34,174 nucleotides of DNA, from NCBI GenBank assembly GCA_964554725.1, contig CAZKQE010000002.1:1-34174 (forward strand). The letters are read 5' to 3'. The notes beneath the pieces were generated by a model that saw only the letters and a program-made list of their open reading frames with translations, searched no databases and had not been told where the DNA came from. Positions 1,766-29,805 of this stretch are shown here, piece by piece. The translations under genes were made by a program, and so were the position numbers. Within the stretch, counting starts at the first letter, position 1; each line of letters starts with the position of its first letter. This stretch comes from an uncultured bacterium (GTDB lineage Bacteria > Eisenbacteria > RBG-16-71-46).

Positions 1766-1794
1766 TTGGTGGGGCAGCCGGGCGCTGCTACGCT
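1766..1794 (+). promoter_or_regulatory. Candidate promoter TTGGTG-17 nt-TACGCT with TGC extended -10, for the YceI-like gene
   Basis: TTGGTG at 1766-1771, a 17-nt spacer, then TACGCT at 1789-1794. The 10-mer CTGCTACGCT recurs upstream of the cytochrome gene at 27927-27936. Confidence 0.3.
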
Positions 1795-3472: not shown

Positions 3473-3504
3473 TCAAGCGGCGGTCAAGGCGGCTGCGGGA
3501 GGAT
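3473..3504 (+). promoter_or_regulatory. SARP-type promoter architecture: TCAAGCG-GCGG-TCAAGGC, 8 nt, GAGGAT
   Basis: Heptads at 3473-3479 and 3484-3490 (11-bp period). GGCTGCGG is at 3491-3498 and the -10-like GAGGAT at 3499-3504. It matches the copy upstream of the 1602-aa protease (27754-27723, minus) at 26 of 32 positions. It points rightward into non-coding DNA and then antisense to the 886-aa protease. Confidence 0.45.
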
Positions 3505-10060: not shown

Positions 10061-10092
10061 TCAAGCCCCGGTCAAGCGGCTGAGGTCAGGGT
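10061..10092 (+). promoter_or_regulatory. SARP-type promoter architecture: TCAAGCC-CCGG-TCAAGCG, 8 nt, CAGGGT, upstream of the 999-aa S8 protease and divergent from the regulator
   Basis: Heptads at 10061-10067 and 10072-10078 (11-bp period). GCTGAGGT is at 10079-10086 and CAGGGT at 10087-10092. The 15-mer TCAAGCCCCGGTCAA is identical to 27754-27740 on the minus strand. Confidence 0.55.
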
Positions 10093-13302: not shown

Positions 13303-13851
13303 ATGTCACGTGACCGAGGTAGGATGGAACGGCCCGGGACGCCCCCGGCCGTGGTGATGGCCGCGCTGCTGCTGTGCGCGGGCGCCGGCGTCGTGGGGGC
13401 CGCGGGCCCCGGTGTGACGACGGGCGCGGGCGCCCGCTGCGAGGCCGCCGTCCGGCACCCGATCGAGGTGCGCGTGCGCCCGCTCGACCCGGTGCGCCGC
13501 GGGGCGACCGTGCGGCTCGAGGTGCGCGCGTCCGCGCGGGTGCCGCTCACCGGCGCCGAGATCCGGCTGGCGTCGTCGGGAGGCGCGGTCCTCGCGAGCG
13601 CCCCGCGGCTGGCGCTCGGCCGGATGGCTCCCGAACGCGAGGCCGCCGGCACCTTCGCGGTCGCCGTGCCGCCGCAGGGCCACCGCTTCCTGGTCCAGTT
13701 CCTCGTCACCGGCGAGGGCCCGCGCGGCGTCCTGACGCGGGGCGCCGTCTACAACCTGCTGCCGGACGGACCGCAGGACGCCGGCCGCGAGGTGACCACG
13801 TCCGGCGGCGAGCGGGTGATCGAGTTCGCCGCCATGCGGAGCGGGCGATGA
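13303..13851 (+). CDS. Small secreted protein of unknown function, translationally coupled to the downstream metalloprotease
   Basis: GAGGAGG (13290-13296) lies 6 nt before the ATG at 13303. Hydrophobic signal segment AVVMAALLLCAGAGVVGAAG. The beta-rich body has high GC3. Its TGA (13849-13851) overlaps the ATG (13848-13850) of the next gene as ATGA. Confidence 0.65.
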   Translation: MSRDRGRMERPGTPPAVVMAALLLCAGAGVVGAAGPGVTTGAGARCEAAVRHPIEVRVRPLDPVRRGATVRLEVRASARVPLTGAEIRLASSGGAVLASAPRLALGRMAPEREAAGTFAVAVPPQGHRFLVQFLVTGEGPRGVLTRGAVYNLLPDGPQDAGREVTTSGGERVIEFAAMRSGR

Positions 13852-16800
13852 ACCGCCGCCTGCTCGCCCTCGCGCTGGCGACGCTCGCGCTCGCCGGCCC
13901 GCTCGCCACCGGGGCGCTCGCCTTCGTCGTGAGCGGGCGCTTCCTCTACGAGGACCGGCGCTACGACGGCCAGGGGTACACCGGCGCGGCGCAGGAGCTG
14001 CCGATCCGCCGCGCGCGGGTCGAGGTCGTGAACGCCGTCACCCAGCAGACGCTGGCGACCGGCGCCACCGACGGCGACGGCCGGTACGCGCTCTCCGTGA
14101 CCGGCCAGACGCTGCCGCTCAATCTCTACGTCCGCTGCGCCACCGACGGCCGGAGCCACGCCCCCGCCTACCAGATCCGGGTGGTGGACAACTTCTTCCG
14201 CGTACCCGCCGTCGGCCTCGACCTGACCGCGTCCATGCTGTACGCGATCACCACCGACGTCACGGTGGCGCACGACCCGGCCTCGGACCTGGACGCGGGC
14301 ACGTTCGTGACCCGCGATCTGGACGGCACCGGCGTGGCGCAGGCCTTCAACATCTTCGACAACGGCGTGGACTTCTTCGACTGGATGGCGCGGCCCGGGC
14401 TGCTGGGGCGCCTGCCGGACGCCACCGAGTTCATCGTCTTCGGGTGGAAGGCCACCGGGACCCCGGGCAACCCGCCGCCGGCGTTCGGCTCCAACTACTC
14501 CCAGCAGGGCGTCTTCATCGGCGCCAGTCCCGGCGAGGACACCGACGGCTGGTCCGACACCGTCATCCTGCACGAGACCGGGCACTGGCTCGACGACGTG
14601 TTCCTCGCCTCCGACAACCCGGGCGGCGCCCACTTCATCGGCGACAACGACGCCAACGTGCTGCTCGCGTACGGCGAGGGGGCGGCGACCTATCACTGTG
14701 CCAAGGTGCGCGAGCTGCGGGCGCTCACCCGCGTGAACCTGCTCGCGCAGCCGGTGGACGACCTGGTCAGCCTCTATGCCGATCTGCTGATCCCGCCGCC
14801 GCTGGGGACACCGGGGGCGCTCTCGTTCTCGTACGACTTCGAGACCGGGACCTTCGCGAACACCGGGGCGCCGATCGGTCAGATCGGATCGGCGAACGAG
14901 ACCAACGTCACCTCGGCGCTGTGGGACCTCCTCGACGGCCCCGGCACCCCGGACGCGACGCCGGGCAGCGACGACGACCCGGTCGAGGTGGGCGACCAGG
15001 TCGCCTGGGACATCGAGCGCAACTACCTGCACACCCTGCCGCCGGCCGAATACGTGACGGTCGAGGACTACTACCAGGGCTGGTTCGCGCGCAACGGAGC
15101 CGGGTATCTCCAGTCGGGGCTCGACCACATCTTCGTCACCCTGGCGGGGATGCCGTTCGCCGCGGACGCCTTCGAGCCCGACGACACGCCGGCCGCCGCG
15201 CACACGATCGTCCCGCTCCCCCACGCGCTGGCCGCCGGCCGCGTGGTGATCAACGAGATCGAGCTGGGCGCCGCCGACGCGGTCGAGCTCTACAACGGGT
15301 CGCCCGACGTGGTGGAGCTCGGCGGGTGGCAGCTCCAGGTCTACGCGAACTCCGCGGATGCCGGCGCGCCGCAGATCTACACCTTCCCCCCGTTCACCCT
15401 GAACCCGGGCGAGGTCGCGGTGCTCCACGAGGGCGGCCTCCCGACCGCCAACGGCCGCATCCACCTGTACGCCGGCGACCGGCAGGTGTTCAACGCCGCC
15501 TGGAACCACGGCATCGACGGGGCGGTCGTGCTGCGGAACGGGCAGGGTCAGGCGGTGGACTTCGTACGCTGGCGCGGACTCGACGCGAACCAGCAGCCCT
15601 ACGAGAACAACACCCCGGTGCCCGCCGGGGTCGCGTACTCCGGCACGCTCGACACGCCGCTGGCGCCGCAGACGATCGCGCGCGACCTCCACGGGACCGA
15701 CAGCGACGACGCCGCCGACTTCCAGGGACACGACGGGTCGCTGGGCGCGGCGAACCACCCGGCGCCCGAGACCCACACGATCTTCGCGGTCGGCGACCGG
15801 GACGTGTTCGCGTTCGTCGCGACCGCGGGCAGCCGCTACGGGTTCGAGGCGCAGGGACCCTACAGCGCCAGCGACCCGCGCATCGAGATCGTCTCGGCGG
15901 CCGGCGAGCCGCTGGGCGGCAACGACGACGCCGACACGCCGGTGCGGGACGCGCGTCTCGACTTCTACGCCGCCGCCGCCGGGACCTACTACCTGCGGGT
16001 CTCGCACACCGGCCCGTTCACGGACTGGGCCGAGTACCGCCTGCTCGCGTTCGTGCGCCCGGTGAGCGCCGCGTTCGCGCCGCCGGGCGGGATGACGGCG
16101 ACCGCGGCGAACGCGCAGGACACCGGCGACGCGGTGGAGCTGCAGTGGGTGAACGCCGCCGCCTACGACTCGGTGCGCGTCTACCGCGACGGCGAGCGCC
16201 TCGCCGCGCTGCCGGGAACGCCGGGCGCGTACACGGACCACGCGGACCGCGGGCTCCACCGATACGAGGTGGCCGGGGTGCTGGCGGGGGCCGAGACCGG
16301 GCGGGCGTCCGACCACGAGTTCGCCGGGGTCGTGCGCTGCCACGCCGAGGACGACTTCGAAAGCGGGAGCGCGGCGGACTGGATCCGCGACGGCGGCAGC
16401 TGGGACGTGACGCCCTTCGCGCACAGCGGCGCGTTCGGGTTCACCGACAGCCCCGCCGGCACCTATCAGGGCTGCCCGCCCGAGGTGAGCGAGTGCCCCC
16501 ACAACGCCGTGGCGATGTTCGCGGTGCCGAGCGTGCCGGTGAGCGGCGCGACGCTGCGCTGGGACCAGATCTGCGTCACCGAGCACTGCGAGCCCACCCC
16601 GTGCGACGTGTGTATCGTCGAGGTGTCGGGCGACGGCGGGACGACCTGGACGGAGATCGCGCGCTACGACCAGGCCTCGGACCCGGCGTGGGCCGACAAC
16701 GTCGCCGACCCCACCGACTGGCGGCCCGCCGAGGCGAGCCTCGCCGCGGTGGCGGGCCAGCAGGCCCTGATCCGCTTCCGGCTGCAGAGCGACCAGCTGC

Positions 16801-17171
16801 TGGAACTGGACGGCTGGTACGTGGACAACGTGCGGGTGGGCGACGCCTCCTGCGAGCTGGTCTCGGCCGGCGACCCCGCCCGGCCGGCGGCGCTCGAGTT
16901 CCTGCCCGCGTGGCCCAACCCCGCGCGCGGCCCGACGCGGCTCTCGTGGACCCTGCCGGCGCCCGAGGAGCGCGTGGACCTGGCGATCCACGACGTGAGC
17001 GGACGGCTGGTGCGGCTCGAGCGCCTGGGCCCGCAGGCCGCGGGCGTCCACGGATGGAGCTGGGACGGCCGCGACGCGCGCGGGCGGACGACCCCGGCCG
17101 GCGCCTACTTCGTGCGGCTGCTCGCCGGACGACACACGCTGCACCGCCGGCTGGTGCGGCTGGCGCCCTGA
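13848..17171 (+). CDS. Large secreted multidomain zinc metalloprotease (HExxH) with lamin-tail domain, PPC-like and MAM/jelly-roll-like domains, and FlgD-Ig/T9SS-type C-terminal domain
   Basis: In frame with track ORF 13374..17171, started at the ATG at 13848. Signal peptide MNRRLLALALATLALAGPLATGALA. Carboxypeptidase-regulatory-like RARVEVVNAVTQQTLATGATDGDGRYAL. Zinc motif VILHETGHWLDD. LTD-like VVINEIELGAADAVELYNGSPDVVELGGWQLQVY...VVLRNGQGQAVDFVRW. PPC-like DRDVFAFVATAGSRYGFEA...GTYYLRVSH. C-terminus WPNPARGPTRLSWTLP...LAIHDVSGRLV...GAYFVRLLAGRHTLHRRLVRLAP. Confidence 0.85.
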   Translation: MNRRLLALALATLALAGPLATGALAFVVSGRFLYEDRRYDGQGYTGAAQELPIRRARVEVVNAVTQQTLATGATDGDGRYALSVTGQTLPLNLYVRCATDGRSHAPAYQIRVVDNFFRVPAVGLDLTASMLYAITTDVTVAHDPASDLDAGTFVTRDLDGTGVAQAFNIFDNGVDFFDWMARPGLLGRLPDATEFIVFGWKATGTPGNPPPAFGSNYSQQGVFIGASPGEDTDGWSDTVILHETGHWLDDVFLASDNPGGAHFIGDNDANVLLAYGEGAATYHCAKVRELRALTRVNLLAQPVDDLVSLYADLLIPPPLGTPGALSFSYDFETGTFANTGAPIGQIGSANETNVTSALWDLLDGPGTPDATPGSDDDPVEVGDQVAWDIERNYLHTLPPAEYVTVEDYYQGWFARNGAGYLQSGLDHIFVTLAGMPFAADAFEPDDTPAAAHTIVPLPHALAAGRVVINEIELGAADAVELYNGSPDVVELGGWQLQVYANSADAGAPQIYTFPPFTLNPGEVAVLHEGGLPTANGRIHLYAGDRQVFNAAWNHGIDGAVVLRNGQGQAVDFVRWRGLDANQQPYENNTPVPAGVAYSGTLDTPLAPQTIARDLHGTDSDDAADFQGHDGSLGAANHPAPETHTIFAVGDRDVFAFVATAGSRYGFEAQGPYSASDPRIEIVSAAGEPLGGNDDADTPVRDARLDFYAAAAGTYYLRVSHTGPFTDWAEYRLLAFVRPVSAAFAPPGGMTATAANAQDTGDAVELQWVNAAAYDSVRVYRDGERLAALPGTPGAYTDHADRGLHRYEVAGVLAGAETGRASDHEFAGVVRCHAEDDFESGSAADWIRDGGSWDVTPFAHSGAFGFTDSPAGTYQGCPPEVSECPHNAVAMFAVPSVPVSGATLRWDQICVTEHCEPTPCDVCIVEVSGDGGTTWTEIARYDQASDPAWADNVADPTDWRPAEASLAAVAGQQALIRFRLQSDQLLELDGWYVDNVRVGDASCELVSAGDPARPAALEFLPAWPNPARGPTRLSWTLPAPEERVDLAIHDVSGRLVRLERLGPQAAGVHGWSWDGRDARGRTTPAGAYFVRLLAGRHTLHRRLVRLAP

Positions 17172-17330: not shown

Positions 17331-17948
17331 TCAGCTGGCGGGTCGCGCCGCGGGCTGCGGCGCCTTGAGGACCGCCTGCAGGTCCACGACCACCTTGACC
17401 TCGTCGCCGAGCAGGACGCCGCCGGCGTCGAGCGCCTTGTTCCAGACGATGCCGAAGTCCTTGCGGTCGAGCGTCACGGCGGTCGTGAAGCCGGCGCGCG
17501 TCCCGCCCCACGGGTCCTTCGCCTCGCCGAGGTAGGTCACCGGCAGGGTGATCGTCTTCGCCACCCCGCGCATCGTGAGGGTCCCGGTCACGTCGTAGCG
17601 GTCCTTGCCGGTGGGACGGACCGCGCTGCTGGTGAAGGTGATCGTCGGGTACTTCTCGACGTCGAAGAAGTCCGGCGAGCGCAGGTGCCGATCGCGGTCG
17701 GCGACGTCGGTGTCGATGCTCGCCGCGTCGATCGTGAACGTGACCGACGAGGCCGCCGGCTGGCGGCGGTCCATGGCGATCACACCCTCGAAGACGCCGA
17801 AGCGGCCGTGGACGGTGCTCAGCAGGTGCCGGATCTGGAACCCGGCGCGCGAGTGGTTGGGGTCCACCACGAGGGTGTCGGCCGCGAGGGCCGGGGTCGC
17901 CGCGAACGCGGCGAGGGCGAGGACGAGGAACAGGCGGCGGAAGGTCAT
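17331..17948 (-). CDS. YceI family periplasmic protein (second copy)
   Basis: HSRAGFQIRHLLSTVHGRFGVFEGVI...DVADRDRHLRSPDFFDVEKYPTITFTS. The ATG at 17948 has an AGGAGA SD and opens the signal peptide MTFRRLFLVLALAAFAATPALA. The track start at 18020 adds 24 codons with AT-rich third positions, which is atypical here. Confidence 0.85.
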   Translation of the reverse strand: MTFRRLFLVLALAAFAATPALAADTLVVDPNHSRAGFQIRHLLSTVHGRFGVFEGVIAMDRRQPAASSVTFTIDAASIDTDVADRDRHLRSPDFFDVEKYPTITFTSSAVRPTGKDRYDVTGTLTMRGVAKTITLPVTYLGEAKDPWGGTRAGFTTAVTLDRKDFGIVWNKALDAGGVLLGDEVKVVVDLQAVLKAPQPAARPAS

Positions 17949-17990
17949 GGCGTGTCTCCTGGCTGAGGGTGAGGGTGGACGGACGGACGT

Positions 17991-18025
17991 TGATTGATGA
18001 TTGAATGGTTGATTGGTCATCTATT
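17991..18025. promoter_or_regulatory. AT-rich cluster of TGATTG repeats plus TTGATTGGTCATCTATT, a candidate MarR operator upstream of yceI
   Basis: TGATTG occurs at 17991, 17998 and 18010. TTGATTG-GTCATCTATT (18009-18025, plus strand) matches TTGATTG-ACGC-GTCATCTATT at 18568-18548 (minus strand) upstream of marR. Confidence 0.45.
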
Positions 18026-18048: not shown

Positions 18049-18528
18049 CTACGGTCCGCAACTCCGGATGCGGTCCAGGATGCGGATGAGCGCCGAGAGC
18101 TCGTCGCCCCCGAGCCCCGCGAGCACCTCCTGCTCGGCCCGCTCGACCTGGGGATCGAGACGGTCGAGCAGCGCGACCCCGGCGGGCGTGATCCCGCACA
18201 GCACCTGACGTCGGTCGCTCGCGCACCGCTCGCGCCGCACGAGGCCCTTGCGCTCGAGCCGGTCGAGGAGCCGGGTGATCCCCGGCGTCCGCTCGATCAT
18301 GCGCGCCGCGATCGCCAGCGTCGGCATCGCCTGCGGTGCGGAGCCGCGCAGGATGTGGAGCACGTTGTACTGCTGCCCCGAGATCCCCGCCGGCTCGATC
18401 GCCCGGAGCAGCCGGCGGCGCAGGTGGTCGGCGGTGTGGAGGATGCCGATCACCGCTTCCTGCTGCGGGGTGCGGAACGGCCGGGTCTGCTGGAGCTCGG
18501 CCTGGAGCCGACCGGAGGGGCGCGTCAT
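18049..18528 (-). CDS. MarR family transcriptional regulator
   Basis: Winged-helix MarR pattern: ISGQQYNVLHILRGSAPQAMPTLAIAARMIERTPGITRLLDRLERKGLVRRERCASDRRQVLCGITPAGVALL. I use the ATG at 18528 (MTRPSGRLQAELQQ). The track start at 18564 is a TTG that coincides with the -35 box. Confidence 0.85.
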   Translation of the reverse strand: MTRPSGRLQAELQQTRPFRTPQQEAVIGILHTADHLRRRLLRAIEPAGISGQQYNVLHILRGSAPQAMPTLAIAARMIERTPGITRLLDRLERKGLVRRERCASDRRQVLCGITPAGVALLDRLDPQVERAEQEVLAGLGGDELSALIRILDRIRSCGP

Positions 18529-18535
18529 GGGAGTT

Positions 18536-18568
18536 AGCATACACATCAATAGATGACGCGTCAATCAA
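18536..18568 (-). promoter_or_regulatory. marR promoter TTGACG-17 nt-TATGCT, with palindromic operator TGACGCGTCA overlapping the -35; ATG 7 nt after the -10 (leaderless-type)
   Basis: Minus strand: TTGACG (18564-18559), 17-nt spacer, TATGCT (18541-18536), AACTCCC, ATG (18528). The perfect 10-bp palindrome TGACGCGTCA is at 18563-18554. Confidence 0.6.
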
Positions 18569-18715: not shown

Positions 18716-20755
18716 CTAGACGCCGAACACCTCGGGCTCCCACTCGAGCCCCAGCTCGCTCGGAGGGCCCATGTAGCCGAGCAACGCCGAGGAGGCCACG
18801 ACCGCGGGGCTCGCCAGGTATCCCTCGCCCCCCACCCCCATCCGGTTGGTCCAGTTGCGGTTGAACGAGGTGATCGCGCGTTGTCCCCGGGTGAGCGCGT
18901 CGGGACCCTGGCCGAAGCAGGGGCCGCACCACGACTCGCGGATCTGGCCGCCGGCCGCGCGGAACACGTCGGCGATGCTCTCGCCCTCGAGCCGCGGGTC
19001 GGCGGCCTCGATGCGGCGTTTCACCCCTCCCGAGCCCGGGAACACCACGAACTCGCGGGCCGCCCGGGCGAACCCGCGCGCGCGCGCGGCGCGCAGCACC
19101 AGCGCGGCCGAGAGCAGGTCGTTGTAGCCGCCGTTCGTGCACGAGCCGATCATCGCCTTGTCGAAGCCGAGCCGCTCGCGCGCGACCTCCTCGGCCGGGA
19201 AGGCGTTCCCGGGGCTGAAGGGGCGCGCGATCATCGGCCGCACCTCGTCGATCGCCAGCGTCTCGTCGATCTCGTATCGCGCCTCGGCGCCGGGGGCGAT
19301 CGGCGGATAGGGCAGCTCCCCCATCCCCTTCGCACGGAACCACTCGAGCGTGATCTCGTCCGGCGCGAAGATGCCGTTGAACGCCTCGGCCTCGGCCATC
19401 ATGTTGCAGATCGTGTTCCGGAACGCCATCGTCAGCTGGCGTCCGGCGTCCACGAACTCCACCGACATCCCCTGCGACTGCTTCCCGCCCCAGCGCCGCA
19501 GCAGCTCGAGCACCAGGTCCTTGCCGCTCACCCACGGGCGCAGGCGGCCGGCGAACGTGACCCGCCGCGCCCGCGGCACGGTCAGGTAGACGTAGCCGGT
19601 GGACCAGCCGAAGCCCAGGGTCGTGGAGCCCACCCCGATGCCGAGCGCGCCGTAGGCGCCGTAGGCGCGGCTGTGCGAATCGGCGCCGGGGACCACCATG
19701 CCCGGCGTCACCAGTCCCTGCTCGGGGAAGTAGAAGTGGAAGATCCCGTCGCCGGGCGTGGCGTAGTAGGGCTTCCCGATCCCGTGCTGGGTCGCGAACG
19801 CGCGTCCGATCGCGGTCTGGCGCTCGTCCGCCTGGTTGCCGGTGAACACGAAGTGGTCGTTCGCGATCGCGATCTGCCGCGGCCAGATGGTGTCCCCGCC
19901 GGTGATCTGGTTGAAGGTGTGGATCGCGAAGGGCGCCGTGCCGTCCGAGGCCGGCAGCAGGTCGGCGTAGACCCGCAGCGTCGCGCCCGGGCGCACCTCG
20001 GCGTCGCGGTCCACCCGGTGGGCCCACACGATCTGCTCGGTGGTCGTGAGCCCGCGCGCGGTCTCCGCGCCGGCCCAGCGGATCTCGGGCGGCGTCGCGA
20101 CCGAGGCGCGGAACTCCCGCCGGCCGACCGCGAAGATCCCGCCGGTGCTGCGGATCTCCTCCTCCTTGGGGCTGAGCGGCACCGGCTCGTAGCTGCGGCC
20201 CCGCGTCTCGTTGGCGAGCCGGCGGGTGACGGGGTCGAACGTGAGCGTGTCGCCGTCCTGCGCGTCGGCCACCGCCTCGGGGCTCTGCACCACGTGGAGC
20301 CCGAGGTTGAAGGCGTTGCGCCGGAAGATGTCCCCCATGTTGGCGCCGCACACCACGACCAGCTCGAGGCCCGCCTCCTCGGCCACGCCCTTGAGACCGG
20401 CCGGGCTCATCTCGCGCGAGGAGCCGATCGCGAACCGGTCGCCGGCGACCAGGAAGGTCTCGCCGCGGTGGACCCGCGCCCGGAAGTCGGGCATCAGGTA
20501 GCGGAACGAGCCCGCCTTCCAGCGCTCGTCGAGCGTCTCCAGGCTCTCCGAGACGCAGTCGGTGGCGGGCGTGATCTGGTCGGTGTCGATCGCGTCGAGC
20601 TTCCGGCCCGGGGTGCGGGGGTCCCAGAAGATCAGCGCCCGACCGCGGATCGTGGCCCCCTCGCCGGGGCGCGGGACGGCGTCGCCCGCCCGCGGCCCCG
20701 GCAGGGCATCGAGGGTCACGCCCGGCTTGAGGCGCGCGGGCTGGGGGACGGGCAT
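18716..20755 (-). CDS. Aconitase/isopropylmalate-dehydratase superfamily protein with the swivel (LeuD-like) domain fused N-terminal to the catalytic (LeuC-like) domains
   Basis: N-terminal small-subunit-like region: IDTDQITPA...FLVAGDRFAIGSSREMSPAGLKG...VCGANMGDIFRRNAFNLGL. Large-subunit region follows with GADSHSRAYGAYGALGIGVG, GSCTNGGY and SWCGPCFG (Fe-S cysteines). Started at the ATG at 20755 (GGAG upstream) rather than the track start at 20911. Confidence 0.8.
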   Translation of the reverse strand: MPVPQPARLKPGVTLDALPGPRAGDAVPRPGEGATIRGRALIFWDPRTPGRKLDAIDTDQITPATDCVSESLETLDERWKAGSFRYLMPDFRARVHRGETFLVAGDRFAIGSSREMSPAGLKGVAEEAGLELVVVCGANMGDIFRRNAFNLGLHVVQSPEAVADAQDGDTLTFDPVTRRLANETRGRSYEPVPLSPKEEEIRSTGGIFAVGRREFRASVATPPEIRWAGAETARGLTTTEQIVWAHRVDRDAEVRPGATLRVYADLLPASDGTAPFAIHTFNQITGGDTIWPRQIAIANDHFVFTGNQADERQTAIGRAFATQHGIGKPYYATPGDGIFHFYFPEQGLVTPGMVVPGADSHSRAYGAYGALGIGVGSTTLGFGWSTGYVYLTVPRARRVTFAGRLRPWVSGKDLVLELLRRWGGKQSQGMSVEFVDAGRQLTMAFRNTICNMMAEAEAFNGIFAPDEITLEWFRAKGMGELPYPPIAPGAEARYEIDETLAIDEVRPMIARPFSPGNAFPAEEVARERLGFDKAMIGSCTNGGYNDLLSAALVLRAARARGFARAAREFVVFPGSGGVKRRIEAADPRLEGESIADVFRAAGGQIRESWCGPCFGQGPDALTRGQRAITSFNRNWTNRMGVGGEGYLASPAVVASSALLGYMGPPSELGLEWEPEVFGV

Positions 20756-20805
20756 GGGTCGGGTGGCTCCATCGGCGGGGACTCGGCGGACGGCGGGATG
20801 GGCCG

Positions 20806-20834
20806 ATGCTAGCGCGGCCGGTCGAGGGCCGCAA
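20806..20834 (-). promoter_or_regulatory. Candidate promoter TTGCGG-17 nt-TAGCAT for the aconitase-family gene
   Basis: Minus strand: TTGCGG (20834-20829), 17-nt spacer, TAGCAT (20811-20806). The -35 overlaps the last base of the proximal 43-bp repeat. Confidence 0.35.
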
Positions 20835-20969
20835 TCCGGGCGGTGCGCGGCGTGGGCCGCCGGCCGCGCCGCGCGGGGTGTCATGGTCACTGCGGCGTTG
20901 AGGTGTGCCATTGACTGCGGTGCTACATCCGGGCGGTGCGCGGCGTGGGCCGCCGGCCGCGCCGCGCGG
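20834..20969. repeat. Perfect 43-bp direct repeat (two copies) separated by a 50-bp lower-GC spacer
   Basis: ATCCGGGCGGTGCGCGGCGTGGGCCGCCGGCCGCGCCGCGCGG occurs at 20834-20876 and 20927-20969. Each copy can fold as GCGCGGCG...CGCCGCGC (8-bp stem) with an inner GGCC/GGCC pairing. The spacer contains the imperfect repeat ACTGCGG(C/T)G. Confidence 0.8.
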
Positions 20970-21631: not shown

Positions 21632-22690
21632 ATGACCGTCGCAGCGACCCCGATCGCATCGGCTCCCGAACCCCGCGACCGCTCCGCCGCCGGTGCGGCC
21701 GCCGGGCCCCCGCCGCCCGACGAGGCGGCGCTGCTCGACGCCTACTCGAGCGCCGTGGTCGGCGCGGTCGAGCGCGTCGGGCCCGCGGTGGTCAACATCG
21801 AGGTCCACGGCATCGAGCCGCCCGCCGGATCGCGACGCGGCCCGCGCCCGCGCGGGGGCAGCGGCTCGGGCTTCCTGTTCACGCCCGACGGCCTGATCCT
21901 CACGAACAGCCATGTCGTCCACGGCGCGCGCCGCCTCGAGGTGACGGTGCAGGACGGGCGCCACCTCGAGGCCACGCTGGTCGGGGACGACCCCGACACC
22001 GACCTGGCGGTCATCCGGGTCGCCGGCGACGACCTCGCCGCCGCGGCGCTCGGGGACTCGGCGCGGCTGCGGGTCGGCCAGCTGGTGATCGCGATCGGCA
22101 ACCCGCTCGGGTTCCAGGCGACCGTGACCGCCGGGGTGGTGAGCGCCGTCGGCCGCTCGCTGCGCTCGCGCTCGGGCCGGCTCATGGACAACATCGTGCA
22201 GACCGACGCCGCGCTGAACCCCGGCAACTCGGGCGGGCCGCTGGTGGACGCCCGCGGCGAGATCGTCGGCGTCAACACCGCGGTGATCCTGCCGGCGCAG
22301 GGGCTGTGCTTCGCGATCCCGGTGAACACCGCGCGCTGGGTGGCGAGCCGGCTCATCCAGCGCGGCCGCATCCGGCGCGGGTACCTGGGACTGGGCGGTC
22401 AGACGGCGCGGATCCAGCGGCGGCTGGTGCTCCACCACCGGCTCCCCGCCGACAGCGGCATGCTGGTCCTCCACGTCGAGCCCGGCAGCCCGGCGAGCGC
22501 GGCCGACCTGCGCGAGGGCGACCTGGTCGTGGGCTTCGCCGGCGAGGCGGTGACGGGGGTGGACGACCTACACCGGCTGCTCGCCGAGGAGCGGATCGGG
22601 CGCGGCTACGCACACGCGTTCATCCGCCGCACGGAGCGGCGCGAGGGGGGGGTGGTGCCCGCCGAGTCCCCCGCCCCGCCGGGCGGCTGA
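21632..22690 (+). CDS. HtrA/DegP-like trypsin-fold serine protease (S1C) with C-terminal PDZ domain
   Basis: GSGFLFTPDGLILTNSHVV (His), DTDLAVIRV (Asp), NPGNSGGPLVDARGEIVGVNTAV (Ser). PDZ-like RGYLGLGGQ...PGSPASAADLREGDLVVGFAGEAV. Confidence 0.9.
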   Translation: MTVAATPIASAPEPRDRSAAGAAAGPPPPDEAALLDAYSSAVVGAVERVGPAVVNIEVHGIEPPAGSRRGPRPRGGSGSGFLFTPDGLILTNSHVVHGARRLEVTVQDGRHLEATLVGDDPDTDLAVIRVAGDDLAAAALGDSARLRVGQLVIAIGNPLGFQATVTAGVVSAVGRSLRSRSGRLMDNIVQTDAALNPGNSGGPLVDARGEIVGVNTAVILPAQGLCFAIPVNTARWVASRLIQRGRIRRGYLGLGGQTARIQRRLVLHHRLPADSGMLVLHVEPGSPASAADLREGDLVVGFAGEAVTGVDDLHRLLAEERIGRGYAHAFIRRTERREGGVVPAESPAPPGG

Positions 22691-22786: not shown

Positions 22787-25700
22787 TCAGCGGAGCAGGG
22801 CGAGGCGCCGCTCGAAGCGGCCCTCGGGGGTGACGAGGCGATAGAAGTAGAGCCCCGAGCGCGCCCGCATCCCGCTCTCGTCCCGCCCGTCCCAGGTCGC
22901 GCGGTGGATGCCGGCGTCGTGCATGCCGCCCGCGATCCGCCGCACCTGCCGCCCCTGCGCGTCGTAGATGTCGAGCGTGACCTCGCCCGGCCGCGGAAGG
23001 CCGAAGGAGATCGAGGTCGGTCCGGCGGCCGGGTTGGGGGCGTTCTGGGCCAGGAACGCGACCGGCGGCGCCCCGCCCTCGACGGCCACCACCGGCGGCC
23101 CGTTCACCTGCACCTCGCGCGAGGAGGCCGGCCCCCAGTTGCCCTGGGTGTCGCGCCCGCGCACCCACAGACGGCGCACGCCGGGCGAGAACGGCGTCGT
23201 GTCGAGACCGATCGAGACGTCCACGGTCTGGGCGCCGAACGCGCCCGACATCGGCGTCCCGCTCCCGGCCGGGGCCGGCGAGTCGCCGATCGACCACTCG
23301 GCCGCGGCGACGGTGCCGGACCCGGTGTTCTGGTCGCTGATCCGCGCCACCAGCGTGGCGGGGTCGGGCCGCACGATCGGGTTGGGACTGGCGGCGATCG
23401 AGCCGGCGACGACGATCGGACCCTGCAGGTCCCCGCCCGCGCGCTGGAGCGCGAAGTCCGCGTTCGACGCGTCGCCGGCCGAGAGCGCCGGCGTCCCGTC
23501 GTCCGTCACCCGGATGCGCACCCGGGCGCCGACCGTGTTGGGGACCGCGGAGAGGTCCCAGCTGTACGGGCCGGGACCCACCCCGGTCGCCAGCGGCTGC
23601 CAGGAGGATCCGCCGTCCAGCGACATCTCGAGCGTGCGCGAGACGATCGCGCGCCCCGGTCCGGCGGTCTCGTTCCAGGTGATGTCCACCGCGCCCGCGG
23701 TCACCACCTCGCCGCCGTTGGGCGCGGTGATCTCGACCGTCGGCCGCGGCCGGCCCAGCAGCCACAGCACGGTCTTGCCGAGCAGGTCGTTGCGGGTGGC
23801 GCTCGCGGCGTTGAACGGCGGCGCCAGCGCCGTGAACTCGAGGAAGAAGTTCGCCAGCCGCGACGGCAGCCCGCCCCAGAAGGCGGTGCCGGCGCTGCCG
23901 TTCGGCGTCGCGCTCTCCCAGCGGAACGCGACGTGGTCGGGCGTGGCGTCGCCGCCCGCGTTCAGCAGCGTGTAGCTGCCGATGCCGCCGGCGAGCGGAT
24001 GGATGTCCACCTCGTCGCCGGCCCCGCCGCTGCGGACCGGCGTGTAGGGGATCCCAGTCGTGTAGCCCCCGGTGATCGGGTCGCCGGCAATGCCGATCGC
24101 CTGCGACCAGGTGGCGGGGTCCGCCTGGTACTGCGCCCGCAGCGTGGTCTCGACCCACAGCCGGCGGTCGGGAGTGAAGGCGGGCGAGGTCGGGTCCGAG
24201 AGCCCCCAGGCGATGTCGTGGCCGTTCACCATCAGCCGGCCGCCGCCGTCGAGGTAGTCGGTGATGCGCGTGCGCGCGGCGTCGCTGAAGGCGGGATAGG
24301 CCTCGAGGCCGGGCTGCCACAGCACCGCCTGGTAGGCGCGCAGGCCCGAGGCGAGGTTCCCGAGCGGCGGGTCGTTCGCCAGCGCCTCGCCCCACAGGTC
24401 GTAGTCGATGCCGTTCGCCTGCAGCGCGCTCTCCCACGTGACCGTGCGCTCGAAGCCGTCCGCCCCCAGCACCAGGAGCACGTCGCCGCGCGCCTTGGCC
24501 GTGAACCGGTAGTGCTGGCCGCCGAGGTCGTCGCGCACCAGGTTCCCGCTCAGCGACACCGACTCGACGTCGTAGTAGTAGGTGGCGCCCAGCGTGAGAC
24601 CGGTCAGGTCCACGGTGTGGGCGAGCGGGTGACCCGGGCCGTCGACCGCGCCCAGCTCGAGCGCCGGCGTCAGGCCGTAGTAGACCCGCGAGGAGGCGTT
24701 GAGGTGGGTATCCCAGGCGATCTGCACGCGGCCGCTGCCCTGCGGCAGCGCCCGCACGTTCGTGATGATCGGCGTCGCCAGGCTCACCTGCGCCCCCGCC
24801 TGGAGGGTGGCCGCCGGCGACGCGTCCACGTAGGTGGCGGTGATCTGGTCGCCGTGGGCGACCGACAGCAGGCCGTCCACGGTCGAGACGTCCGCCGGGG
24901 TGAGGGTGACGGCGCCGGAGTAGAGCCCGTTCGCGCCGGACAGGGTGACGACCAGCGGCGTGGTCTCGGTGTCCGAGACCAGGCTGACGTTCACGCTGGG
25001 GCCGGCGTTCGTGTCGGTGACGCGGAGCTCCACGGTCCCGGTCGAGCCGTACTCGGCGCGGTCCAGCGCCAGCGTCCCGGCGTCGGTGCCGACGCCGCCG
25101 GTGACGCACAGACCGAACGGCTGCGGCCCCATCGGCACCGCCGCCGCGTCGATGCGGATGGTCCAGATCCCGGTCGCCGGGGCCCCCACCAGCACCGCCT
25201 CCTCGACGTTGCGGTTGTCATGGCTGCCGCCGGTCACCGAGAGACCCGCCGCGTACACGTTGCCCTTGTAGCTGGTCGCGCCACGGCTCACCGTCAGGTT
25301 CAGGTTGTTGACCAGCTGCACGGCCGCCGCCGGGTTGCCCGGGAAGTCGGTCCAGCACAGCGAGACCTCGAGCGGCACCCCGCCGTCGACCACGTTGACC
25401 TGGTACTCGACGAACTGCCCCGCGCCCAGGCCCTCCGTGTGGTCCACCAGCAGCAGCTTGCGCGCGTCCCCGGCGAAGTAGAGCACCTCGTCGGCGACGA
25501 TCTTGCCGTAGCCGACGTTGTGGTCGGGGGCGGTGAAGCCGGTGACGACGTTCGCCGCCGCGTTGATGCCCATCGCCTTGAGCAGGGCGGCCGAGGGCGT
25601 GAACCCGTTCGCCGGCACCTTGGTGCCGGTCGGGTACCAGCCCTCGGTGCAGTACTGGCGGATGAGCGTGATCGCCCCGGTCCCCGACGGACACGCCATC

Positions 25701-27595
25701 GAGGTGCCGGAGAGCGGCGCATACGATCCCGGCGTGCCGCTGGCGGAGATCAGGCTCACCGCCGGGCTGCAGAAGGTGGGCTTGCGACGGGAGTCCTGAC
25801 AGGGACCGCGGCTGGTCGAGGTGTAGATGCCGGTCGAGGTGCCGTTCTGCGTCCCGCCCGCCCCGGTCGAGTTCTTCGCCGTGGCCGGCGAGCCGACCGA
25901 GCCCGCGGTCCCCGAGTTCCCGGTCGCGAACGCCGCGTAGAAGTCGGGGTGGTTCCACAGGAACTGGTCCGTGGTCATCGCGTGGAGCGTGTAGGCCCCG
26001 GACACCGCCCCGCCCCAGGAGTGCGAGGAGACCCGCGCGCCACCGGCGGCGTTGCCGGCGTAGGCCGGCTGGTACAGGTCGTTGAGGTCCGGGAATGCGT
26101 CCACGCCGTTCAGCAGCGTGGTGCCGCCGATGTCCATGAAGTACATCTTCGCCTCGGGCGCCATGCCGTCGAACGGGATCGCGCCTCCCGAGGGGGCGTC
26201 GTTGCCCAGCACGGTCCCGGCGGTGTGGGTGCCGTGGAACACCGCGCCGGGATGGTCGCCGAACTCGACCGCCGGGTTGTTCGACCCCTTCTTGTAGCCG
26301 ATGATCTTGCGGTGGGTCGGGTAGTCGCCGAAGTCCACGATCGGCACCAGCGGGTCCACGAACATCTCGTGGTCCACCTGGATGCCGCTGTCCGAGGTCA
26401 TCACGATCTGCCCTTCCCCGCGGATCCCCATGTCCCAGACGCGCCGGTTGCCGTTCAGGTTCGTCTGCACCACCCACTGCGCCTGGTCGTTGTAGAGCTC
26501 GAGCGGCACCACCGGCTCCACCCAGGCGACCTCGGCCCGCGCCGACACCGCCGGCAGCAGCGCCGGCGCGGCCTCGAAGCGAACCATCTTGTTGATGCCG
26601 TTGTCCCAGGTGTCCACCAGCGTCACGCCGAGCGCGGTCAGGCCCGCCGCGGTGGCGGCGAGGTCCGCGTCGGGGAACAGCAGGACGGTGTAGCGCTGCG
26701 GCCCCGGGCCGCCGGGGCCGGCGACCGGGCTCACCTTGTACGCCGGCTGCCAGTCGCCCACCCACGCCACGCCGGGCTCGGCCGCCAGCCGGGCGGCGGC
26801 CGCCGCGGTCATGCGCACGAGGTAGGCGTGGTCGGGGATGTAGGTGTGGACGGCGCCGCCGGCCGCGGTGATGCGGGCGACGTCCTTCGCGGTCGGCATG
26901 GCGGAGAACTGGACCAGGTAGGCACGGATCGACGCCGGGTCGCCCCCGTCCGTCGCCGCGCGCAGCCCGGCCGGCACCTCGGGCAGACCCTCGGCCGGCG
27001 CGAACTCGTAGCCGGCGGACAGCCGGATGCGGGGCGGCGACGAGGCGTCCGCGGAGGCGGCCGCCGTGCGGTCCGCGGCCCCGACCGTCCCGCGCCGCGA
27101 CTCGCGCAGGTAGGGCGAGGCGGCGACCCGGTTCATGAAACGCGGCTCGGCCGTGAACGAGCGCACCTCGCTGACCCGCAGCGCGCCGGTGGCCCCGTCG
27201 ACGTGGGCGACCGCCCACCAGAGGGCGGTCGGCGCCTCGACCCGCAGGCCGGCATCGGCGAGGGACAGCAGCGGCCCGGTCAGGTCCCGCACCACGAACC
27301 CCTCCCCCGCGGGGACGGCGGTCCAGCCGGCGGGGTCGAAGGCCGCGCGCGAGAGCACCAGCCGCGGCTGGCGGGCGCCGACCGGGAGCTCGAACGCGAA
27401 GCGCACGGCGCTCTCGACCAGCCGGGCGCCCGACTCGGGCGCGATCGGGCGCGCGCGTCCGACCCGGGCGGCGTCCTCGGGACGGATCGAGGCGTGCGCC
27501 GGCAGGGGGACGGTGAGCGAGAGCGCCAGGCCGAGCAGCGCCAGCGCGAGCGACCGGGGGAACCGGTCGAATCCAGTCCCGATCCTCGGGGTCAT
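22787..27595 (-). CDS. Giant secreted subtilisin-like serine protease (peptidase S8) with multiple accessory domains and FlgD-Ig/T9SS-type C-terminal domain
   Basis: GGAGGAGG SD before the ATG at 27595. Signal peptide MTPRIGTGFDRFPRSLALALLGLALSLTVPLPAHA. Triad motifs IVMTSDSGIQVDH (Asp), FHGTHTAGTVLG (His) and SGTSMACPSGTGAITL (Ser). Asp-box SLDGGSSW. C-terminus PNPAAGPTSISFGLP...LDIYDAQGRQV...GLYFYRLVTPEGRFERRLALLR. Confidence 0.9.
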   Translation of the reverse strand: MTPRIGTGFDRFPRSLALALLGLALSLTVPLPAHASIRPEDAARVGRARPIAPESGARLVESAVRFAFELPVGARQPRLVLSRAAFDPAGWTAVPAGEGFVVRDLTGPLLSLADAGLRVEAPTALWWAVAHVDGATGALRVSEVRSFTAEPRFMNRVAASPYLRESRRGTVGAADRTAAASADASSPPRIRLSAGYEFAPAEGLPEVPAGLRAATDGGDPASIRAYLVQFSAMPTAKDVARITAAGGAVHTYIPDHAYLVRMTAAAAARLAAEPGVAWVGDWQPAYKVSPVAGPGGPGPQRYTVLLFPDADLAATAAGLTALGVTLVDTWDNGINKMVRFEAAPALLPAVSARAEVAWVEPVVPLELYNDQAQWVVQTNLNGNRRVWDMGIRGEGQIVMTSDSGIQVDHEMFVDPLVPIVDFGDYPTHRKIIGYKKGSNNPAVEFGDHPGAVFHGTHTAGTVLGNDAPSGGAIPFDGMAPEAKMYFMDIGGTTLLNGVDAFPDLNDLYQPAYAGNAAGGARVSSHSWGGAVSGAYTLHAMTTDQFLWNHPDFYAAFATGNSGTAGSVGSPATAKNSTGAGGTQNGTSTGIYTSTSRGPCQDSRRKPTFCSPAVSLISASGTPGSYAPLSGTSMACPSGTGAITLIRQYCTEGWYPTGTKVPANGFTPSAALLKAMGINAAANVVTGFTAPDHNVGYGKIVADEVLYFAGDARKLLLVDHTEGLGAGQFVEYQVNVVDGGVPLEVSLCWTDFPGNPAAAVQLVNNLNLTVSRGATSYKGNVYAAGLSVTGGSHDNRNVEEAVLVGAPATGIWTIRIDAAAVPMGPQPFGLCVTGGVGTDAGTLALDRAEYGSTGTVELRVTDTNAGPSVNVSLVSDTETTPLVVTLSGANGLYSGAVTLTPADVSTVDGLLSVAHGDQITATYVDASPAATLQAGAQVSLATPIITNVRALPQGSGRVQIAWDTHLNASSRVYYGLTPALELGAVDGPGHPLAHTVDLTGLTLGATYYYDVESVSLSGNLVRDDLGGQHYRFTAKARGDVLLVLGADGFERTVTWESALQANGIDYDLWGEALANDPPLGNLASGLRAYQAVLWQPGLEAYPAFSDAARTRITDYLDGGGRLMVNGHDIAWGLSDPTSPAFTPDRRLWVETTLRAQYQADPATWSQAIGIAGDPITGGYTTGIPYTPVRSGGAGDEVDIHPLAGGIGSYTLLNAGGDATPDHVAFRWESATPNGSAGTAFWGGLPSRLANFFLEFTALAPPFNAASATRNDLLGKTVLWLLGRPRPTVEITAPNGGEVVTAGAVDITWNETAGPGRAIVSRTLEMSLDGGSSWQPLATGVGPGPYSWDLSAVPNTVGARVRIRVTDDGTPALSAGDASNADFALQRAGGDLQGPIVVAGSIAASPNPIVRPDPATLVARISDQNTGSGTVAAAEWSIGDSPAPAGSGTPMSGAFGAQTVDVSIGLDTTPFSPGVRRLWVRGRDTQGNWGPASSREVQVNGPPVVAVEGGAPPVAFLAQNAPNPAAGPTSISFGLPRPGEVTLDIYDAQGRQVRRIAGGMHDAGIHRATWDGRDESGMRARSGLYFYRLVTPEGRFERRLALLR

Positions 27596-27722
27596 GACGG
27601 GCCTCCTCCAGTGGGGTGCGCCGGCGGCGCGTTCGCCTGCGGAAGGCGGACACGGTCGCCGGTCGCCGGGGACATGCCGGGCGCCGCCGGCGCGACGCGC
27701 GCGGCGGCCCCGGGACGCGGAG

Positions 27723-27754
27723 AGCCTCCCGCCGCCGGGTTGACCGGGGCTTGA
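27723..27754 (-). promoter_or_regulatory. SARP-type promoter architecture: TCAAGCC-CCGG-TCAACCC, 8 nt, GAGGCT, upstream of the 1602-aa protease
   Basis: Minus strand: TCAAGCC (27754-27748), CCGG, TCAACCC (27743-27737), GGCGGCGG (27736-27729), GAGGCT (27728-27723). An additional single TCAAGCC sits on the plus strand at 27818-27824, facing the cytochrome gene. Confidence 0.55.
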
Positions 27755-27981
27755 GCCGGCGCCCGGGCGGGTCCGCTGGAGACAGGCAACCGATTGCGCA
27801 CCATGGCGTTAGGAAAATCAAGCCGGGCCGGTTCGGAGTGGGTCTCGGAGCGCTCTGCCGGCCCCGTCCCGCCGCCCGCACCCGGCGGCCGGCCCGCGCG
27901 CGCGGGCGGCGGTCGCCGGCCGGGGCCTGCTACGCTGCGCCCGCCCCCGCCTCCCGCCGGCCCCGGAGACCCCGACGATCC

Positions 27982-29805
27982 ATGCGCCCCCGCCCGCGGA
28001 CTCTGATCGCCGTCGCCGGCGCGCTCGCCCTCGCCACGCTGGGGGTCGCGCGCGTGCGCGACGTCGCCCGCGAGACGCGGACCCCGGTCCACCTGCCCGG
28101 CGTCCGCTACGCCACCTCGGCGACCTGCGTCCCGTGCCATCCGGGACGTTTCGAGAGCTGGCACCGCACCTTCCACCGCACGATGACCCGGCGCGCGGAC
28201 CGCGCCGCGGTGGTGGGCGACTTCGAGGACGCGAGCCTCACCTACCAGGGGGTCACGTCGCGCTTCACGCGCGAGGGCGACCGCCACTTCATCGCGACCC
28301 TCTCCCCCGACGGAGCGATCGAGCGGCACGAGGTGGTGATGACCGTCGGCTCCCGGCGCATCCAGCAGTACGTGGCGCGGATCGGCCGCCGGCACGTGCG
28401 CCTGCCGCTCGCCTGGGACATCGAGGAGCGCCGCTGGATCCACCTCAACGGCGGCTTCCTGCACCCGGACGGATCGGACTTCAACACCCATCGGGCGGAC
28501 TGGGACAACAACTGCATCTTCTGCCACAACGTGAAGGCGCAGCCGCGCTACGACGAGGCGACCGACACCTTCGATCCGCGGGTCGAGGAGCTGGGCATCG
28601 CCTGCGAGGCGTGCCACGGCCCGGCCGCCCTCCACGTGCGACGCAACGCCGACCCCGTGCGCCGCTATCTGCTCCACCTCGGCGACCGCGACCCGACGAT
28701 CCTGTCGCCGAACGAGCTCACCCCGGCCCGCAGCATCCAGCTGTGCGGACACTGTCACGGCCAGCGGCTGCCGGAGCCGCCGCAGCGGCTCGCCGAGTTC
28801 CTGCTGGTCGGCGACCCGTACACCGCCGGCGACGACCTCTCGACCTTCACGACCCCGCTCGCGGCCCACACCGACCTGCCGGGCGTCGACCTGAGCGCGC
28901 GGTTCTGGCGCGACGGCACCCCGCGCCTCACCGCGTACGAGTACCAGGGTCTGCTCCTTTCCGACGGGCATCGCGACAGCGACCTGACCTGCGTCTCGTG
29001 CCACGACATGCACGGCGGCGACCCGCGCGGCATGATCCACACCGAGATGCGCGGGCCGACCGGATGCCTGCAGTGCCACGCGGCGATCGGCCGCGACGTG
29101 CGGGCCCACACCCATCACGAACCGGAGGGCGCCGGCAGCGACTGCTACGCCTGCCACATGCCGCCCACCACCTACGGGCTGCTGGCGATCCATCCCAGCC
29201 ACCGGATCACGAGCCCCGATCCCGCGCGCGCGTGGCGGTTCGAGATGCCCGACGCCTGCACGCTGTGCCACACCGACCGCACCGCGGCGTGGGCCGACTC
29301 CGCCGCCCGGCGGCAGTACGGCGGGGCCCCGGCCGCGCCGCCGGCGGGGGGCGGGTTCGAGACCGCCGAGAGCGTGCGCGCGCTGCTCGCGGGGGACGTC
29401 GTCCAGCGGGCGGTGGCGGTGAACGCGCTGTGCGGCGGGCCGGCGGCGACGACGGACGCGGTCGCCCGCCTGTGGGCGGTGCCGTTCCTGCTCGTCACGC
29501 TCGAGGACCGCTATCCCGCGGTGCGGCACTTCGCGTGGCGGGGGCTGCAGAGCCTGCACCGGCGGGCGCGGGCCGCGGCCCCGGGGTTCCCGGCGCCGCT
29601 GCCGGAATTCGACTATCTTGCCGACGCCGACGACCGCGCGGCGGCGGTCGCGCGCGCCTGGGCGTGGTGGCGGGCGCTCGACCGGCGGCGCATCCCGCAC
29701 CCGGGCCCCGCGGTGCCGCTCGACGCGGAGTTGATGCCCATCGAAGCCACGGTCGCCGCGCTCACGGCTCGGCAGGCCCGCAGCGCGATCGCGATCGGGG
29801 AGTGA
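27982..29805 (+). CDS. Membrane-anchored octaheme c-type cytochrome with a helical-repeat (HEAT-like) C-terminal region
   Basis: In frame with track ORF 27616..29805, started at the ATG at 27982. N-terminal anchor MRPRPRTLIAVAGALALATLGVA. Eight CxxCH motifs: CVPCH, CIFCH, CEACH, CGHCH, CVSCH, CLQCH, CYACH, CTLCH. The C-terminal roughly 170 aa lack haem motifs (…VQRAVAVNALCG…DRYPAVRHFAWRGLQSL…). Confidence 0.85.
   Translation: MRPRPRTLIAVAGALALATLGVARVRDVARETRTPVHLPGVRYATSATCVPCHPGRFESWHRTFHRTMTRRADRAAVVGDFEDASLTYQGVTSRFTREGDRHFIATLSPDGAIERHEVVMTVGSRRIQQYVARIGRRHVRLPLAWDIEERRWIHLNGGFLHPDGSDFNTHRADWDNNCIFCHNVKAQPRYDEATDTFDPRVEELGIACEACHGPAALHVRRNADPVRRYLLHLGDRDPTILSPNELTPARSIQLCGHCHGQRLPEPPQRLAEFLLVGDPYTAGDDLSTFTTPLAAHTDLPGVDLSARFWRDGTPRLTAYEYQGLLLSDGHRDSDLTCVSCHDMHGGDPRGMIHTEMRGPTGCLQCHAAIGRDVRAHTHHEPEGAGSDCYACHMPPTTYGLLAIHPSHRITSPDPARAWRFEMPDACTLCHTDRTAAWADSAARRQYGGAPAAPPAGGGFETAESVRALLAGDVVQRAVAVNALCGGPAATTDAVARLWAVPFLLVTLEDRYPAVRHFAWRGLQSLHRRARAAAPGFPAPLPEFDYLADADDRAAAVARAWAWWRALDRRRIPHPGPAVPLDAELMPIEATVAALTARQARSAIAIGE

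Follow-up and report, generated by a model that had tools for sequence, protein, structure and literature searches.

Promoters controlled by Streptomyces antibiotic regulatory proteins (SARPs) contain direct repeats 11 bp apart, and 8 bp separate the 3' repeat from the -10 element; in the afsS promoter, which has a poor -35 and the -10 hexamer CACTGT, the afs box extends from -40 to -19, and a SARP dimer is placed side by side on it, carrying sigma region 4 (PMC10936776). SARPs have so far been described as activators of natural-product gene clusters, mainly in actinomycetes, and their small, medium, large and SARP-LAL classes, described in Streptomyces, all have an N-terminal SARP domain (PMC10972967). 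The window analyzed here is the whole 34,174-nt stretch (positions 1 to 34,174, forward strand) of contig CAZKQE010000002.1, which comes from an uncultured bacterium of Candidatus Eisenbacteria and contains a box of this type (site C; 27737-27754, minus strand) upstream of the gene of a 1602-aa secreted protease. Site C together with the adjacent hexamer GAGGCT is interpreted, with a probability of about 0.7, as an activator-dependent promoter of this protease gene operating by SARP-type sigma adaptation.

On the minus strand (27754-27723) site C reads TCAAGCC-ccgg-TCAACCC-ggcggcgg-GAGGCT. The upstream heptamer (DRup, TCAAGCC; 27748-27754) and the downstream heptamer (DRdown, TCAACCC; 27737-27743), which starts 11 nt past the start of DRup, are followed after 8 nt by the -10-like hexamer GAGGCT (27723-27728), and 127 nt separate this hexamer from the protease ATG (27595-27593, minus strand). 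The heptamer spacing agrees with the 11 bp (or 22 bp) of SARP promoters, and A2 and T6 of the hexamer are conserved at the 8-bp distance of such promoters (PMC10936776); the initial annotation had called this element a SARP box at canonical spacing. A direct reading of the window locates the 15-mer TCAAGCCCCGGTCAA exactly at 27740-27754 (-) and 10061-10075 (+), and this pair, GAGGCT, a lone TCAAGCC and the motif TGCTACGCT all lie where they had been reported. The resemblance to the Streptomyces promoters (afs box of AfsR; DnrI, ActII-ORF4 and RedD boxes) comprises the heptamer repeats at 11 bp, the 8 bp to the -10, the lack of a usable -35, the suboptimal -10 (CACTGT in afsS; CAGGGT, CAGTGT and GAGGCT here), a box start near -40, and a binder consisting of winged helix and BTAD, which in the present case is a match by structure model (PMC10936776, PMC10972967). 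In contrast to these promoters, the repeat here is TCAAGSS, the host is not an actinomycete, and the targets are secreted S8 proteases, several of them leaderless, rather than biosynthetic gene clusters. A scan of 27400-28100 for the sigma-70 consensus gave zero matches. The opposite orientation, with TTGACC as a -35, was rejected, as no site has a -10 at 16-18 nt on that side and the conservation extends only on the side on which TCAAG is read.

Orthologs of site C were obtained from a contig index (L009-L011, by our numbering of related loci) and a metagenome scan (L012-L014, of which L013 is nearly identical to L014). All of them carry gCTCAAGnn-nnnn-TCAAnnn-8 nt-CAnnnT at 135-166 nt before the ATG, with the hexamers CAGGGT, CATCGT, CAAGGT, CAATGT and CAAGCT, all of which share A2 and T6. 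When six independent site C sequences were anchored on the box and compared, box and hexamer (32 nt) were seen to have 12 invariant positions and a mean pairwise identity of 67%, against 3 positions and 42% in the 40 nt upstream of the box and 2 positions and 37% in the 40 nt downstream of it. The TCAAG of DRup is invariant in 6/6 orthologous promoters and in all 22 promoter-type sites, and the TCAA of DRdown in 6/6 orthologs. By sequence comparison, TCAAG-N6-TCAA with nAnnnT is the sole conserved island of the protease intergenic region across the six orthologous loci, and site C very probably functions as a promoter element for the protease gene.

The box is also rare outside these positions. 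If up to 3 mismatches are allowed, TCAAGCCCCGGTCAA matches the window 5 times where 0.59 matches are expected, and with 1 mismatch at most, TCAAG-N6-TCAA does so 6 times (0.84 expected). The exact pattern TCAAG-N6-TCAA has 6 matches in 233 kb of L009-L048, each at the orthologous position before the protease, and the composite TCAA-N7-TCAA-N12-A-N3-T has 20 matches in 430 kb but 0 in 20 block shuffles. The shared 15-mer might be taken for a chance repeat, or for a remnant of repeated or mobile DNA with no regulatory role, given a genome of 72-79% G+C, a composition in which short GC-rich repeats are common. However, conservation centres on the bases that include A/T (TCAAG, TCAA, A, T), the window count observed for the 15-mer was not attained in any of 100 shuffles, the box is kept at the orthologous site in six genomes while its flanks have diverged, it does not occur elsewhere in the 233 kb, and the likeness between sites is limited to about 32 nt. 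Chance repetition is effectively refuted by the 233-kb specificity, the footprint comparison and the composite-pattern shuffles, and is hardly credible.

Among the 22 promoter-type sites the heptamer spacing is always 11 nt, A stands at hexamer position 2 (position 28) in 16 and T at hexamer position 6 (position 32) in 21; these two bases took no part in choosing the sites, except that five site-D boxes, which are without a hexamer, were left out. A-11 and T-7 are the -10 positions that a sigma-70-type factor reads most strictly. Since other promoters in the related loci are of the form TGnTAnnnT or TTGACn-17/18-TAnnnT, the box-linked hexamers are weak versions without T-12, like CACTGT of afsS. 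Two paralogous proteases of about 1600 aa in the genome of L011 also have boxes. One (L050, 3872-3930, +) contains four heptamers in 11-nt register (TCAAGCC, TCAATCT, TCAAGCC and TCAAGGG) followed by CAGGAT, and the other (L049, 3874-3905, +) reads TCAACTC/TCAATAG followed by CAGGCT.

The window contains four further boxes. Sites A (3473-3504, +; TCAAGCG-gcgg-TCAAGGC-8 nt-GAGGAT), B (10061-10092, +; TCAAGCC-ccgg-TCAAGCG-8 nt-CAGGGT) and C share the pattern TCAAGSS-N4-TCAASSS-N8-nAGGnT, with no longer element in common. Site B precedes a 999-aa S8 protease gene (10165-13164, +), and in L002 the orthologous box, at 2282 (-), carries CAGTGT as its hexamer. Site E (6336-6367, -) is degenerate and reads TCAAGTC-ccag-GCAACCC-8 nt-TCCACT, with 8 nt between this hexamer and the ATG at 6327 of another S8 protease gene (3718-6327, -). 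The site-E arrangement follows the stop codon of a candidate regulator gene, discussed below, in 10/10 loci with downstream sequence (the window, L001-L005, L007, L008, L051 and L052), with hexamers of the types TCCACT, TCTCAT, TGAGAT, GAGAAT, GAAGCT and TGTACT, each 7-8 nt ahead of the conserved ATG of the protease gene (GTG in L005) and with no Shine-Dalgarno sequence. This proximity of the ATG implies a leaderless mRNA, which in turn fixes the hexamer as the -10 element. The S8 protease listed as an open reading frame (ORF) of 886 aa (start 6378) thus most likely begins at 6327 (869 aa), judging from sequence, and is translated from a leaderless mRNA. L051 and L052, whose regulators have 54-56% identity, possess the same box and leaderless protease, and in both of them another box precedes the S8 protease that comes next. 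From the start of DRup to the leaderless ATG the distance is 39-40 nt, which sets the predicted +1 equally far from the box start, the same geometry as in afsS, where DRup begins at -40 (PMC10936776).

When this geometry is transferred to site C, the predicted transcription start falls at 27714-27716 (-), and the predicted 5' leader of about 120 nt (27596-27713, -) includes the Shine-Dalgarno sequence GGAGGAGG at 27602-27609. GGAGG and the ATG of the 1602-aa protease gene are invariant in the ortholog alignment. RNAalifold on six leaders gave no conserved RNA structure (consensus -5 kcal/mol), and scans of the whole window with Rfam (gathering threshold) and for tRNAs gave zero matches.

Site A, whose hexamer (GAGGAT) is a good one, occupies the same place in the window, L001 (10972, -) and L008 (3631, -), about 220 nt upstream of the TPR gene, from which it faces away, and it points towards the 3' terminus of the convergent protease gene. 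A box at the same place and in the same orientation in L004 (16675, -) has a different neighbouring gene and precedes a 110-aa ORF; this small ORF was rejected as the target of site A, as it is an FlgD_ig fragment with no counterpart at site A of the window. Downstream of site A, where the three-sequence alignment is poor, the search yielded neither an ORF nor a conserved RNA, and the site could give a short antisense or non-coding transcript or could be a relic. Site D (1694-1711, +; TCAAGAC-gggg-TCAAGAT), with two perfect heptamers of TCAAGA type, lies in the divergent region between genes of Peptidase_Mx and YceI type, has no -10-like hexamer at 8 nt, and is conserved in five genomes (the window; L001, 12745, -; L002, 10463, -; L003, 17793, -; L008, 5402, -). 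It could be an upstream operator. Beside it, an in-frame GTG (1580) follows about 9 nt after TAGCAT (within 1578-1597, -), and the Peptidase_Mx gene may be leaderless and start at this GTG rather than at the TTG at 1697, which is inside box D.

The candidate regulator is a 1152-aa protein (6400-9858, -) with matches to Pfam AAA_22, TPR_MalT and, at the C-terminus, BTAD (E 9e-14). Its SARP domain (6445-7170, -) consists of a winged helix (about residues 897-990) directly before the BTAD (997-1138). As aligned by phmmer with PDB sequences, residues 130-387 of the C-terminal 400 aa correspond to residues 30-284 of AfsR (8hvr_I, E 1.4e-6), and the C-terminal 260 aa or so also correspond to residues 7-255 of EmbR, so that both winged helix and BTAD are covered. 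An AlphaFold2 model of the last 300 aa (20 orthologs; mean predicted local distance difference test, pLDDT, 86.6; predicted template modelling score, pTM, 0.78) shows strands, three helices and a beta hairpin followed by an all-helical domain. Foldseek matches this model to AfsR 8k60_J (E 4e-11, template modelling score 0.77, about 255 columns), to 8hvr_I (E about 1e-10) and to EmbR, 8k60_J and 8hvr_I being AfsR SARP chains in transcription initiation complexes. In the predicted recognition helix (model residues 99-120), N108, H110, P111, T112, S114, Y115 and R117 are invariant among orthologs of 50-100% identity, and the TCAAG core is equally invariant across loci whose full-length regulators are 54-100% identical.

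According to these alignments and the model, the regulator is a MalT-like STAND-TPR protein with a C-terminal SARP fold, and it is no classical SARP, the SARP domain standing behind a MalT-type STAND-TPR module. The SARP domain is N-terminal in all classes described in PMC10972967 but occupies residues 897-1138 or so of 1152 here, and the neighbours and targets are S8 proteases in Candidatus Eisenbacteria instead of secondary-metabolite clusters in an actinomycete. Large SARPs (AfsR type, SARP-NOD-TPR) and SARP-LAL proteins (PimR, SanG, FilR) likewise fuse SARP to a STAND/AAA NTPase and TPR, whereas the order here is reversed (NTPase-TPR-SARP) and the NTPase and TPR parts are of MalT type (AAA_22/AAA_16, WHD_MalT, TPR_MalT) with no NB-ARC match. 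MalT and LAL regulators also have an N-terminal ATP-binding STAND module followed by a MalT-like TPR, and among the homologues of the regulator several are annotated by the Joint Genome Institute (JGI) as 'MalT' or 'LuxR family maltose regulon positive regulatory protein', and several as 'MalT / DNA-binding SARP family'; unlike MalT and LAL, the protein carries its SARP domain at the C-terminus and has no LuxR-type HTH family among its Pfam matches. MalT boxes are not known to resemble the 11-bp direct heptamers of the window. More than 120 full-length homologues of the regulator were found, and those with a source name are from Eisenbacteria except for one Saccharimonadaceae record. A genome-collection scan with the 1152-aa protein gave eight loci, all in Candidatus Eisenbacteria metagenome-assembled genomes, at 61-85% identity; these regulator loci contain 17 box matches, and a box is always found just past the regulator stop codon.

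The initial placing of the 1602-aa protease in a SARP regulon is thereby strengthened, as the heptamer cores with A2 and T6 are invariant in six orthologous promoters, the same architecture precedes other S8 proteases, and a regulator with a SARP domain is encoded in the window. The architecture of the box, its conservation, its specificity, its linkage to the regulator gene and the SARP fold of the regulator are the observations from which a mechanism can be proposed; from sequence we infer that the DNA is bound, that the effect is activation and not repression, where transcription starts, and which SARP paralogue binds. Two SARP-domain protomers (winged helix and BTAD) would bind as neighbours on the pair of TCAAGSS heptamers, whose spacing is one helical turn. 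The heptamers would take the place of the absent -35 and serve sigma region 4 as a docking surface ('sigma adaptation'), allowing a housekeeping-type RNA polymerase to use a weak -10 that retains only A-11 and T-7. Transcription would start near 27714-27716 (-) and yield an mRNA whose leader is about 120 nt long. The likeliest activator is the 1152-aa protein, whose STAND NTPase and TPR parts may act as a signal-dependent switch for the C-terminal SARP domain, and which would also activate, as a minimum, the genes of the 999-aa protease (site B) and of the leaderless protease (site E). This linked protein is the probable binder of the site C box. In a wider sense, the balance tips slightly towards a 'reversed' large SARP family (MalT-type STAND NTPase, TPR, C-terminal SARP) that in the sampled Eisenbacteria uses the sigma-adaptation grammar of Streptomyces to switch on giant secreted subtilases, several of them leaderless.

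Several points weigh against this interpretation of site C. The regulator gene is 18 kb away from it. Pfam Trans_reg_C is undetected in the regulator even at E <= 10, so that the winged helix is assigned from the phmmer alignment together with the modelled structure. Other proteins of SARP or OmpR type may be present in Eisenbacteria genomes, and one of them could be the true binder. Sites A and D do not fit a simple class-II-like promoter, and their patterns suggest that the regulator may do more than class-II-like activation. No box or any other 11-nt-periodic repeat was found upstream of the protease homologues that are less closely related (N-terminal identity of about 55% or below), which share other conserved upstream motifs instead, and the link between box and protease is therefore clade-specific. 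Finally, the cytochrome gene is adjacent in all seven loci with site C, so that two possible targets are told apart solely by orientation and spacing.

The distance between site C and the regulator gene, the missing Trans_reg_C match and the fact that 34 kb of the genome is in view would also suit a real promoter element that is bound by another winged-helix protein, either of OmpR/PhoB type or another SARP paralogue. The PhoB pho box in particular consists of 7-bp direct repeats with a 4-bp spacer at the -35 place, which it replaces, and is bound by winged-helix protomers arranged head to tail. It is about 10 nt from its -10, and the protein that binds it contains a receiver domain but lacks a BTAD. 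The boxes described here have no linked gene for such a regulator. Against such a binder, the box stands directly past the regulator stop codon in all ten of those loci, whose regulators span 54-100% identity, and is also present in the divergent upstream region of the regulator gene in the window and L002; moreover, the regulator has a complete SARP domain with an invariant predicted recognition helix, and the 8-nt spacing to the hexamer is that of the SARP rule (PMC10936776). Another winged-helix binder is accordingly regarded as unlikely, and the 1152-aa protein is preferred.

The adjacent gene (27982-29805, +), divergent from the protease gene, encodes an octaheme c-type cytochrome of 607 aa with matches to Pfam multihaem families; it contains eight CxxCH motifs, so that the term 'octaheme' used at first was correct. 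The divergent arrangement of protease and cytochrome is kept in L009-L014. The cytochrome operon has its own promoter with the extended -10 TGCTACGCT at 27928-27936 (+) and a predicted start at about 27943, and the window and L009-L011 carry CCTGCTACGCT or CCTGCTATTCT (type TGCTAYKCT) on the cytochrome strand, a recurrence that upholds the extended -10 first suggested for this gene. An identical extended -10, CTGCTACGCT, is present at 1786-1794 (+) before a YceI gene, with TTGGTG 17 nt upstream, and at 27928-27936 (+) before the cytochrome gene. As it recurs before other genes of related loci, TGnTAnnnT probably represents the housekeeping type of promoter in this lineage.

Site C might instead be a bidirectional element that also, or only, controls the octaheme cytochrome operon, by which protease secretion would be coupled to respiration. 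This would agree with the presence of the divergent cytochrome gene at every site C locus, with the lack of any cytochrome match beside box-less homologues in the fetched sequence, and with a TCAAGCC that faces the cytochrome gene in the window (27818-27824, +) and in L012-L014. In the latter (L012, about 2680-2700, cytochrome strand) it forms a palindrome, TCAAGCC-gttattt-GGCTTGAcg, followed by TTGACG-17-CAGGGT; the palindrome overlaps the -35-like TTGACG, lies at a different distance from the box than the window heptamer, and is the only hint of heptamer action on a cytochrome promoter. However, the extended -10 of the cytochrome is at a variable 80-176 nt from the box (window and L009-L011), which excludes a fixed geometry, and in every other box the hexamer, and the leaderless ATG where there is one, is on the TCAAG-reading side. 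The lone heptamer of the window is of uncertain significance, having no counterpart in L009-L011 and no conserved position; a cytochrome-facing TCAAGCC thus occurs in two lineages at differing positions and is missing from three others. Of the co-regulation raised by the initial annotation, the heptamer itself is present, but its shifting position, its absence from three loci and the variable distance of the -10 lend the idea little weight, and control of the cytochrome operon by site C is considered improbable, the protease gene remaining the preferred target.

The finding extends a known principle, with good support, and establishes no new one. The same promoter grammar is met here, conserved base for base, in an unrelated uncultured phylum, before very large secreted proteases, and is linked to a regulator of the opposite domain order. 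If this holds, SARP-type activation is neither actinobacterial nor bound to antibiotic synthesis but a portable and possibly old mechanism, which in this uncultured soil and groundwater lineage controls extracellular proteolysis, and site C might couple the octaheme cytochrome operon to it. Of the 15 top-ranked among 80 papers mentioning Eisenbacteria, none is a gene-regulation study. Confirmation would provide the first regulon and the first promoter rules for Candidatus Eisenbacteria (weak nAnnnT -10 with SARP box, TGnTAnnnT housekeeping type, leaderless starts) as well as a testable case of 'sigma adaptation' outside Actinobacteria, and the search pattern TCAAGSS-N4-TCAASSS-N8-nAnnnT would predict secreted hydrolases that are switched on jointly.

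The gene map of the window was built from the G+C content of third codon positions and Pfam scans. The 1602-aa protease (22787-27595, -), the target of site C, has a Peptidase_S8 domain and a C-terminal FlgD_ig domain according to Pfam, and has more than 120 full-length homologues, those with a source name being from Eisenbacteria. The map further contains Peptidase_Mx (567-1580/1697, -), YceI (1879-2546, +), a secreted TPR protein (2628-3254, -), the S8 protease following site E, the 999-aa protease with S8 and FlgD_ig domains, a 1265-aa LTD/PPC/FlgD_ig protein (13374-17171, +), a second YceI (17331-18020, -), MarR (18049-18564, -), aconitase (18716-20911, -) and an HtrA-like protease (21632-22690, +), while TerB and an amidase are encoded past the cytochrome gene. 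An exact look-up of the 999-aa protease, the 1602-aa protease and the amidase in the contig index returned no record. In L009 (1-1471), a contig syntenic with the window, the aconitase product is 1419 aa long and has a weak match to Pfam Intein_splicing, the window aconitase ORF being 731 aa. The intergenic region between protease and cytochrome of L010 has an insertion of about 150-200 nt (about 2400-2600), with the inverted repeat CTTAGCCTGGGCTATTCATGA ... TCATGAATAGCCCAGGCTAG at its flanks, resembling a miniature inverted-repeat transposable element.

Two other motifs were observed upstream of distant homologues of the 1602-aa protease. CTGGACC-N17-20-GGTTTCATTGTAGGGT, a further promoter or operator type, is strongly conserved about 60-100 nt before the ATG, in place of the SARP box, in L016-L021, L023, L028-L033, L035, L041, L043 and L044; the motif of this clade, sought in the window as CTGGAC-N17-GGTTTCAT, gave no match there. 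Another clade (L034, L036, L037, L039, L040 and L042) has TCTGAGAGAA upstream of the protease, often as the palindromic CTCTCAGAGA, and in L034 and L037 TCTGAGAGAA is located directly upstream of a canonical TTGACn-17/18-TAnnnT promoter.

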